DNA of 64,000 nucleotides from Rozella allomycis CSF55 (Eukaryota), in the NCBI GenBank assembly GCA_000442015.1, contig KE561209.1, positions 493,607 to 557,606 on the forward strand. Direction: 5' to 3'. The position numbers and the translations under genes are program-made. Numbering within the stretch: position 1 is the first letter of the stretch; every line of letters begins with the position of its first letter. Positions 40,147 to 41,135 of the stretch are shown here, piece after piece. Under the pieces are notes generated by a model. The model had not been told where the DNA came from and did no database searches. It saw nothing but the letters and a program-made list of their open reading frames with translations.

Positions 40147-41135
<989 letters not shown>

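Follow-up and report, generated by a model that had tools for sequence, protein, structure and literature searches.

Introns of very short and constrained length are known from Paramecium (~25 nt), Stentor (15-16 nt) and the nucleomorph of Bigelowiella (18-21 nt), and to our knowledge the short introns of all three are described as GT-AG. In yeast, the 3′ splice site follows a simple rule, i.e. the first AG past a minimum distance from the branch point is used. Yeast genetics and spliceosome structures have also shown that in exon ligation the first and the terminal G of the intron pair with each other and that the nucleotide at position -2 contacts the branch adenosine. Introns ending in TG instead of AG are already known as rare exceptions. 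U2-type GT-TG introns have been described in the human genes GNAS and TSPYL2, where the TG serves as an alternative 3′ splice site (PMC4176328, citing Szafranski et al. 2007). The human GT-TG introns are rare, long and mostly used as an alternative to AG; their GT donor follows a U2-like consensus, and splicing is carried out by the major spliceosome. In Ganoderma lingzhi, GT-TG appears among the transcript-supported non-canonical sites with 22 sites, corresponding to 0.024% (PMC11590231, Table 1). Short introns have furthermore been reported for Rozella allomycis and its wider comparison group: fungal median intron lengths go down to 29 bp in a set including R. allomycis (PMC8042348), and its S23 introns are given as ~30 nt (PMC6349667).

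Here we analysed a stretch of 64,000 nt from the cryptomycotan parasite R. allomycis CSF55 (contig KE561209.1), referred to as the window in the following, which has a GC content of ~35% and in which nearly all introns are 26-33 nt long. With Paramecium, Stentor and Bigelowiella the window shares the narrow range of intron lengths and the hard lower limit. As in the yeast rule, AGs that lie too close are passed over and the first AG past a threshold is taken. Unlike in yeast, the window introns have no recognisable branch consensus, and the threshold can be measured only from the 5′ end, where it amounts to 26 nt. Within this set, a 26-nt segment of an AUH-like gene (positions 40349-40374, minus strand) is probably a genuine spliceosomal mini-intron that is removed with UG, not AG, at its 3′ end. 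With the human GT-TG introns (PMC4176328), such candidates share the GT donor and the replacement of AG by UG. They differ from the human introns in that TG is the sole acceptor in reach, in their length of 26-29 nt and in the lack of a pyrimidine tract and of a recognisable branch consensus. The TG share in the window is ~2-4% of introns, with 3 well-supported cases and at most 7 among ~170. Compared to this, the GT-TG frequency in Ganoderma lingzhi is ~100-fold lower, and TG there stands level with GT-AC, GT-GG and GT-AA, whereas in the Rozella window no non-AG ending other than TG has support.

The literature searched yielded no description of TG acceptors in Rozella. The supplement of PMC13393502 contains nothing on splice-site types, and the acknowledgement of that paper mentions unpublished Rozella RNA-seq. 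A metagenome scan for DNA of relatives, carried out with the public Rozella protein P0060, found none.

The introns of the window were identified with a gene finder based on dynamic programming, which combines codon log-odds derived from the window's long ORFs with GT donors and allows introns of 18-70 nt. Refined runs additionally used a donor matrix and a length prior from the first run. Counts from the refined runs, including the frequency of skipped AGs and the dinucleotide picks given below, are partly circular because the model was trained on the same window and used its own length prior. A run with a flat prior that permitted only AG acceptors is free of length-prior circularity. This run yielded 157 introns, of which 139 are unique after collapsing a tandem duplication. 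Their lengths rise sharply at 26 nt, with 2 introns of 24 nt, 2 of 25 nt, 25 of 26 nt, 22 of 27 nt, 18 of 28 nt, 13 of 29 nt, 7 of 30 nt and 2 each of 31 and 32 nt; 12 are shorter than 24 nt, and 34 are spread evenly over 35-69 nt. As the length prior was flat, the sharp onset at 26 nt is not imposed by the model. Choosing the first AG that ends at least 26 nt from the donor gives the correct acceptor in 87 of 93 flat-prior introns, and a threshold of at least 25 nt does so in 88 of the 93. All introns above 33 nt that the refined AG-only parse places outside an antisense model coincide with TG candidate sites.

Other sequence signals in these introns are sparse. The donor reads GTA[A>T,C,G] in all 94 training introns, a set that was selected for a GTA start. 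Of 162 introns, 52 contain a YTRAY branch-site motif, the enrichment of 5-mers does not exceed 2.6-fold, and there is no pyrimidine tract. The initial annotation had proposed that a minimum-length ruler overrides sequence. The first half of this proposal holds, since the 26-nt onset demonstrates a real threshold, but sequence keeps its influence: an AG ending is found in ~165 introns (~96-98%), as opposed to 3 TG introns with good support and up to 7 TG candidates in all, and the terminal G is kept throughout. In the 3 cases where a TG at nt 26 or beyond precedes an AG by 2-4 nt, the models chose the AG. The skipping of internal AGs had likewise been put forward as a feature of the AUH-like gene and of an F-BAR-like gene. 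Their proximal AGs are indeed too near the 5′ end, yet this is not special to them, as an unused internal AG is found in 103 of 162 introns of the refined parse, and such AGs occur at each position between nt 4 and nt 26.

The AUH-like gene encodes an enoyl-CoA hydratase resembling methylglutaconyl-CoA hydratase (40147..41038, minus strand) and comprises 5 exons and 260 amino acids in the GT-TG model. Pfam ECH_1 matches in its exons cover profile positions 5-68, 87-132, 134-181 and 215-250 of 251, and the PDB matches to the protein include human AUH (1hzd). Exon 3 is 100% identical to the public protein P0001, 'ClpP/crotonase [Rozella allomycis CSF55]'; together with matches of nearby genes to the Rozella proteins P0060 and P0061, this identifies the window as nuclear Rozella DNA. 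Three introns of the gene are canonical GT-AG introns and match P0001. These are located at 40727..40753 (minus strand, 27 nt, with unused AGs ending at nt 15, 20 and 23), at 40554..40583 (minus strand, 30 nt, joined as IIPGAGGTQRL) and at 40265..40290 (minus strand, 26 nt, joined as NVDINTGL). The proposed GT-TG mini-intron (40349..40374, minus strand, GTAAAT...GATTG) has a length of 26 nt, which is the commonest intron length in the window. Read on the minus strand from 40374 to 40349 its sequence is GTAAATAATTTTTTGTAGTTTGATTG, with an internal TAG at nt 16-18 (40357..40359, minus strand), which is skipped in this model, and the TG at nt 25-26.

To compare the possible products we built the corresponding isoforms. 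Use of the TAG as an 18-nt acceptor leads to an immediate stop, as originally described, the isoform ending in ...EISKKV, and removal of 26 nt at the TG leaves the frame open to the natural stop. Retention of the segment results in a protein ending in ...KKGK. We then scored frame-keeping excisions (GT start, frame kept, single terminal stop; n = 70) with a profile of 57 aligned non-Rozella homologues. The 26-nt GT-TG isoform is at the top of the 70 with 309.7 bits. The runners-up reach 304.7 bits (23 nt) and 303.2 bits (20 nt), a 44-nt GT-AG isoform (40331-40374) scores 289.5 bits, and the retained and 18-nt isoforms fall to ~242 bits. The next AG in the gene ends at nt 42, which is 16 nt further downstream and out of frame. 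The TG at the 40349 end would be the sole productive acceptor, unlike the usual human pattern of a TG beside an AG.

Two public annotations of this gene (EPZ and RKP accessions) contain a different intron, a 47-nt GT-AG intron (40357..40403, minus strand) that uses the internal TAG as its acceptor; placing the donor G at 40403 reproduces P0001 exactly. The same annotations give a GT-AG intron of 72 nt for an SNF2 gene described below, and both public introns have canonical dinucleotides and keep the frame. If these models are right, the Rozella proteins simply do without the residues in question. We consider this unlikely. The annotations appear to be pipeline predictions, and lengths of 47 and 72 nt are far beyond the intron range of 26-33 nt. 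Moreover, the public AUH isoform scores 290.4 bits, 19 bits below the GT-TG isoform. The Pfam spacing points in the same direction: the ECH_1 positions 182-214 (33 positions) span residue 48 of exon 3 to residue 2 of exon 5, and this gap is filled by 32 residues in the GT-TG model and by 24 in the public model. The public model drops a 10-residue helix segment kept by homologues, for which the Bifiguratus homologue P0002 has DIAQRILPQG, and in an alignment made by eye P0002 and the GT-TG isoform are ungapped. Taken together, the 26-nt segment of the AUH-like gene is most likely a GT-TG mini-intron.

This is further supported by two other conserved genes. The gene for a SMARCAL1-like SNF2 helicase (36462-38440, plus strand), which matches the public P0060, contains a predicted GT-TG intron of 27 nt (37466..37492, plus strand, GTAAAT...GATATG) with unambiguous boundaries. 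With a profile of 119 homologues the 27-nt GT..TG isoform obtains 732.2 bits and ranks at the top of 26 frame-keeping excisions. The public 72-nt GT-AG intron (37466-37537; P0060 and P0181) leads to 721.1 bits, 11 bits lower. The GT-TG model retains 15 residues after LPPKRRQQ, and the public model loses a strand at this place, directly after the LPPK motif, that the homologues keep. A PDB search with the SMARCAL1-like protein gave no matches, and Pfam matches to single exons are weak.

The second gene is YEATS4/Yaf9-like (4673-5418, plus strand) and has a putative GT-TG intron of 28 nt (5144..5171, plus strand, GTAATT...AAATG). Its upstream exon aligns ungapped with residues 93-137 of human YEATS4 (chain 8x15_W), and the downstream exon aligns ungapped with residues 139-158 of the same chain (E ~0.4-0.7, all 5 matches being YEATS4). 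This leaves room for a single residue from the split codon, so only the 28-nt excision ending in TG fits; alternatives of 22, 25 and 31 nt would add or remove residues. Frame-keeping GT/GC-AG excisions of the gene start at 82 nt. In 3 of 3 conserved genes tested (AUH, SNF2 and YEATS) the homology optimum therefore ends in TG, a dinucleotide with a frequency of ~0.05-0.06. A separate observation concerns the first intron of the YEATS-like gene (4700-4727, plus strand), which needs a 28-nt excision reading GT..GG or GG..TG; alternatively, one surplus G in a GGGG run hides an ATG start, resulting in MGTILYRPILYG.

The F-BAR-like/PH gene (23624-26010, plus strand; public models P0061 and P0182) contains the second segment of the initial annotation, whose coordinates for both this segment and the AUH one proved exact. 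The candidate (24213..24239, plus strand, 27 nt, GTACTA...ATTTG) reads GTACTATATACAGTTTAATTATATTTG, with a CAG ending at nt 13 and the TG at nt 26-27. The CAG is out of frame (13 mod 3 = 1) and the TG at 27 is in frame, as had been noted. An in-frame TGA straddles the 3′ boundary and is lost on excision. The shortest frame-keeping GT-AG alternatives have 54 nt, with a GTTTAA donor 12 nt downstream, and 66 nt, with the donor of the candidate itself. The exon just 5′ of the segment matches positions 1-24 of the FCH profile (E 0.079), and the best Pfam FCH match of the gene, 16.5 bits, is below the cut-off of 27.8. The read-through sequence has no PDB matches, and in an exhaustive search of 1.84 billion representatives the only matches are to the public Rozella model. 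In the ESM Atlas the nearest clusters are F-BAR families at 0.90-0.91, which we take as a lead only; the UniRef name of P0061 is F-BAR domain-containing protein. What suggests a GT-TG intron in this gene is thus the reading frame together with a weak FCH similarity. At both the AUH and the F-BAR-like site the original observation is confirmed. No RNA run was found to cover 36000-45000, and a comparison of the runs X3, X5, X7 and X10 (RNA) with 23500-41500 yielded DNA contigs and a single unrelated X10 fragment, with no junction at any candidate intron, a result that has no bearing on expression. For the conserved genes, we infer splicing at the RNA level from protein conservation, which indicates the functional protein to be expected and not the product of the cell.

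The public model of this gene must start downstream, without the FCH start and without the PH domain. P0061 begins downstream of 24213-24239 at MVAKMRDEVV. The PH domain in the downstream part of the gene is recognised by Pfam PH with an E-value of 5e-9 and is lost through the 43-nt GT-AG intron of the public models. The PH-domain exon can be joined by an ambiguous intron at 25667..25695 (plus strand), either as a 29-nt GT..TG intron or as a 47-nt GT-AG intron. We also observed that P0061 and P0182 both begin within the gene and terminate in a short tail that is out of frame, so that the upstream FCH-like exons and the downstream PH domain are missing from both. The two models disagree on whether a stop-free in-frame stretch of 27 nt at ~24493-24519 (VIDNNLGNK) is an intron.

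The segments could also remain unspliced, in genes that are broken or decaying or in which read-through of stop codons or ribosomal frameshifting restores the product. For the segments starting at 24213, 37466 and 19374 this is easily pictured: they comprise 27 nt in frame with a single stop, and read-through would produce the full-length protein with 9 additional residues. However, the AUH (26 nt) and YEATS (28 nt) segments would require frameshifts. No 9-residue insertion is seen in homologues, and the isoforms free of the segment score highest. All segments start with GTA, are intron-sized and are as AT-rich as introns, and the good conservation of the flanking exons counts against decay. 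We regard retention of the segments in the mRNA as very unlikely.

A related question is where exactly the cuts are made. As the letters G, G and T recur at both boundaries of the AUH segment, its boundary is ambiguous by 1-3 nt and the same mRNA is obtained from GG..TT, TA..GG or AA..GT cuts. In total there are four placements in AUH and, owing to repeated letters, five in YEATS, and the F-BAR-like mRNA is also obtainable by a GG..TT cut. The mRNA could hence be the predicted one and yet arise from another cut placement, e.g. GG..TT or AA..GT, or from an intron that is not of the U2 type. In AUH and in the F-BAR-like gene GT..TG is the sole placement with a GTA donor, and no placement of the 26-nt AUH excision ends in AG. 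By contrast, the boundaries of the SNF2 intron permit GT..TG and nothing else; this placement alone is shared by all cases, and it keeps the GTA donor of this genome. U12-type introns are characterised by the extended donor /RTATCCTT and a branch site similar to TCCTTAAC. The AUH donor, GTAAATAA, is not U12-like and the segment contains no U12-like branch motif, and U12-like donors (ATATCC or GTATCC) are absent from the segments, in each case as read from the sequence. There is, in our view, only a slim chance that another placement or another intron class accounts for the data.

Errors in the DNA sequence would offer a further explanation, in which the assembly is wrong or a defective allele was sequenced and the true base at -2 is A. 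The window contains 12 single N positions, two haplotypes are present around 39.9-40.3 kb, and the GT..GG case at 4700-4727, a separate matter, could be due to a 1-nt error in a G-run. Against this, the same A-to-T error would be needed at the same intron position in at least 3 genes. Contigs from DNA run X3, which derives from another sample, are identical to the window over both 24213-24239 and 37466-37492; in the former case the identical contig extends over 23500-26589. An error of this kind is barely credible. Other features of the sequence were also noted. Between 39960 and 40405 the DNA runs X3 and X5 contain another haplotype or strain that has diverged by numerous substitutions and 1-nt indels, and several runs have contigs that break near 40382-40406. 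At 42866-43037 (plus strand), in an LRR-like gene, the peptide FNNQSLENIAI is encoded twice, ~100 nt apart, around an N at 42991, which points to a local duplication or to a problem in the assembly.

Besides the candidates described above, the gene finder proposed further TG endings. A probable GT-TG intron lies in a gene without known domains (19374..19400, minus strand, 27 nt, GTAATG...AACTG). It contains an in-frame TAA, its only same-donor GT-AG alternative has 81 nt, and the basis for this assignment is the frame only. Of the 7 TG picks of the gene finder 3 are ambiguous, namely the one at 25667 in the F-BAR-like gene, one in the LRR-like gene (42838..42864, plus strand), which can be read as a 27-nt GT..TG or as a 39-nt in-frame GT-AG intron, and one at 38820-38845. 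All 7 TG candidates have 26-29 nt, start with GTA and keep the terminal G. Their GC content is 0.15-0.27, compared to 0.27 for AG introns and 0.36 for exons. In 6 of the 7 there is no AG with its end between nt 19 and nt 35. For the five clearest candidates, as read from the sequences, the TG provides the first G at nt 26 or beyond.

To determine whether the excess is specific for TG, each non-AG dinucleotide was in turn permitted as one extra 3′ ending at a cost of -5 bits. TG obtained 7 picks with a gain of 17.5 bits. The other 14 dinucleotides obtained 0-4 picks and 0-9.1 bits. AA came next with 4 picks (9.1 bits), although both AA and TT occur twice as often as TG. When all 15 non-AG dinucleotides were permitted together at -6 bits, 15 non-AG introns resulted, 5 of which end in TG. 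TG is thus the only predicted non-AG intron ending with support in the window. Several of the remaining picks could be rejected individually. The AT pick at 37069-37094 is false, since a 32-nt GT-AG intron yields the DECH box as in P0060. The AC, CC and AA picks lie on the strand opposite to stronger genes, those ending in GT or TA run beyond natural stops, and one TA pick belongs to a weak model of 12 bits. We also noted an intron (49901-49929, plus strand) in which the AG that is used ends at nt 29 and a TG ends 3 nt before it, at nt 26 and in the same frame. This is a candidate for alternative use of TG and AG, which would add or drop one codon.

Two mini-introns (54950-55004, minus strand; copy at 60650-60704, minus strand) that abut without an exon between them were found in a gene similar to axonemal dynein intermediate chain 2. 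The pair consists of GTAATT...AACTAG (27 nt) followed by GTAATA...CAATAG (28 nt). The flanking exons align ungapped with human DNAI2 (chain 8j07_m2, residues 63-114 and 116-155), so all 55 nt are removed. The pair may represent a recursive or a tandem splice and would fit an upper length limit on single introns. The two copies belong to a direct tandem duplication of 5.7 kb (51250-56957 and 56950-62657) with 8 mismatches in 5708 nt, which spans the dynein intermediate chain-like gene together with adjacent genes and could be real or an assembly artefact.

Based on the length distribution and on the conserved genes we infer the following order of recognition events. The 3′ splice site would be the first AG ending at least 26 nt from the donor, a threshold that presumably has a structural reason, and nearer AGs would consequently be unusable. 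In a few percent of introns no AG lies within the permitted span, and the first UG within it would be used instead. UG keeps the terminal G, with which the intron's first G pairs in the second step of catalysis; a U at -2 would weaken the site without abolishing it. If the 3′ end is set by reach and not by scanning along a long tail, the first UG would be usable where no AG competes.

In a more general form, which we put forward tentatively and rate somewhat below an even chance, the Rozella spliceosome would measure its introns, taking the first A/U-G at 26 to ~33 nt from the donor without a sequence-defined branch site. UG would then be constitutive in a few percent of introns, longer stretches would be removed as abutting mini-introns, like the 27+28-nt pair of the dynein gene, and the public models would be wrong at a few percent of junctions, with hundreds of proteins truncated or deleted in part. 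If this is true, Rozella represents a natural system in which 3′ splice-site choice is mostly based on distance and a UG acceptor is constitutive. This would bear on how the last two bases of an intron are read in the second step of splicing and on how very short introns are recognised.

There are also consequences for the use of the Rozella gene set, as the public Rozella proteins are a widely used outgroup for microsporidia and fungi. The public sets apparently contain incorrect junctions at these sites in the AUH-like enzyme, the SMARCAL1-like helicase and the F-BAR/PH protein, and conclusions on gene content or domain loss drawn from the public Rozella models inherit such errors. If the spliceosome of Rozella does measure its introns, models restricted to canonical sites would misplace a few percent of junctions, which may affect hundreds of proteins genome-wide.
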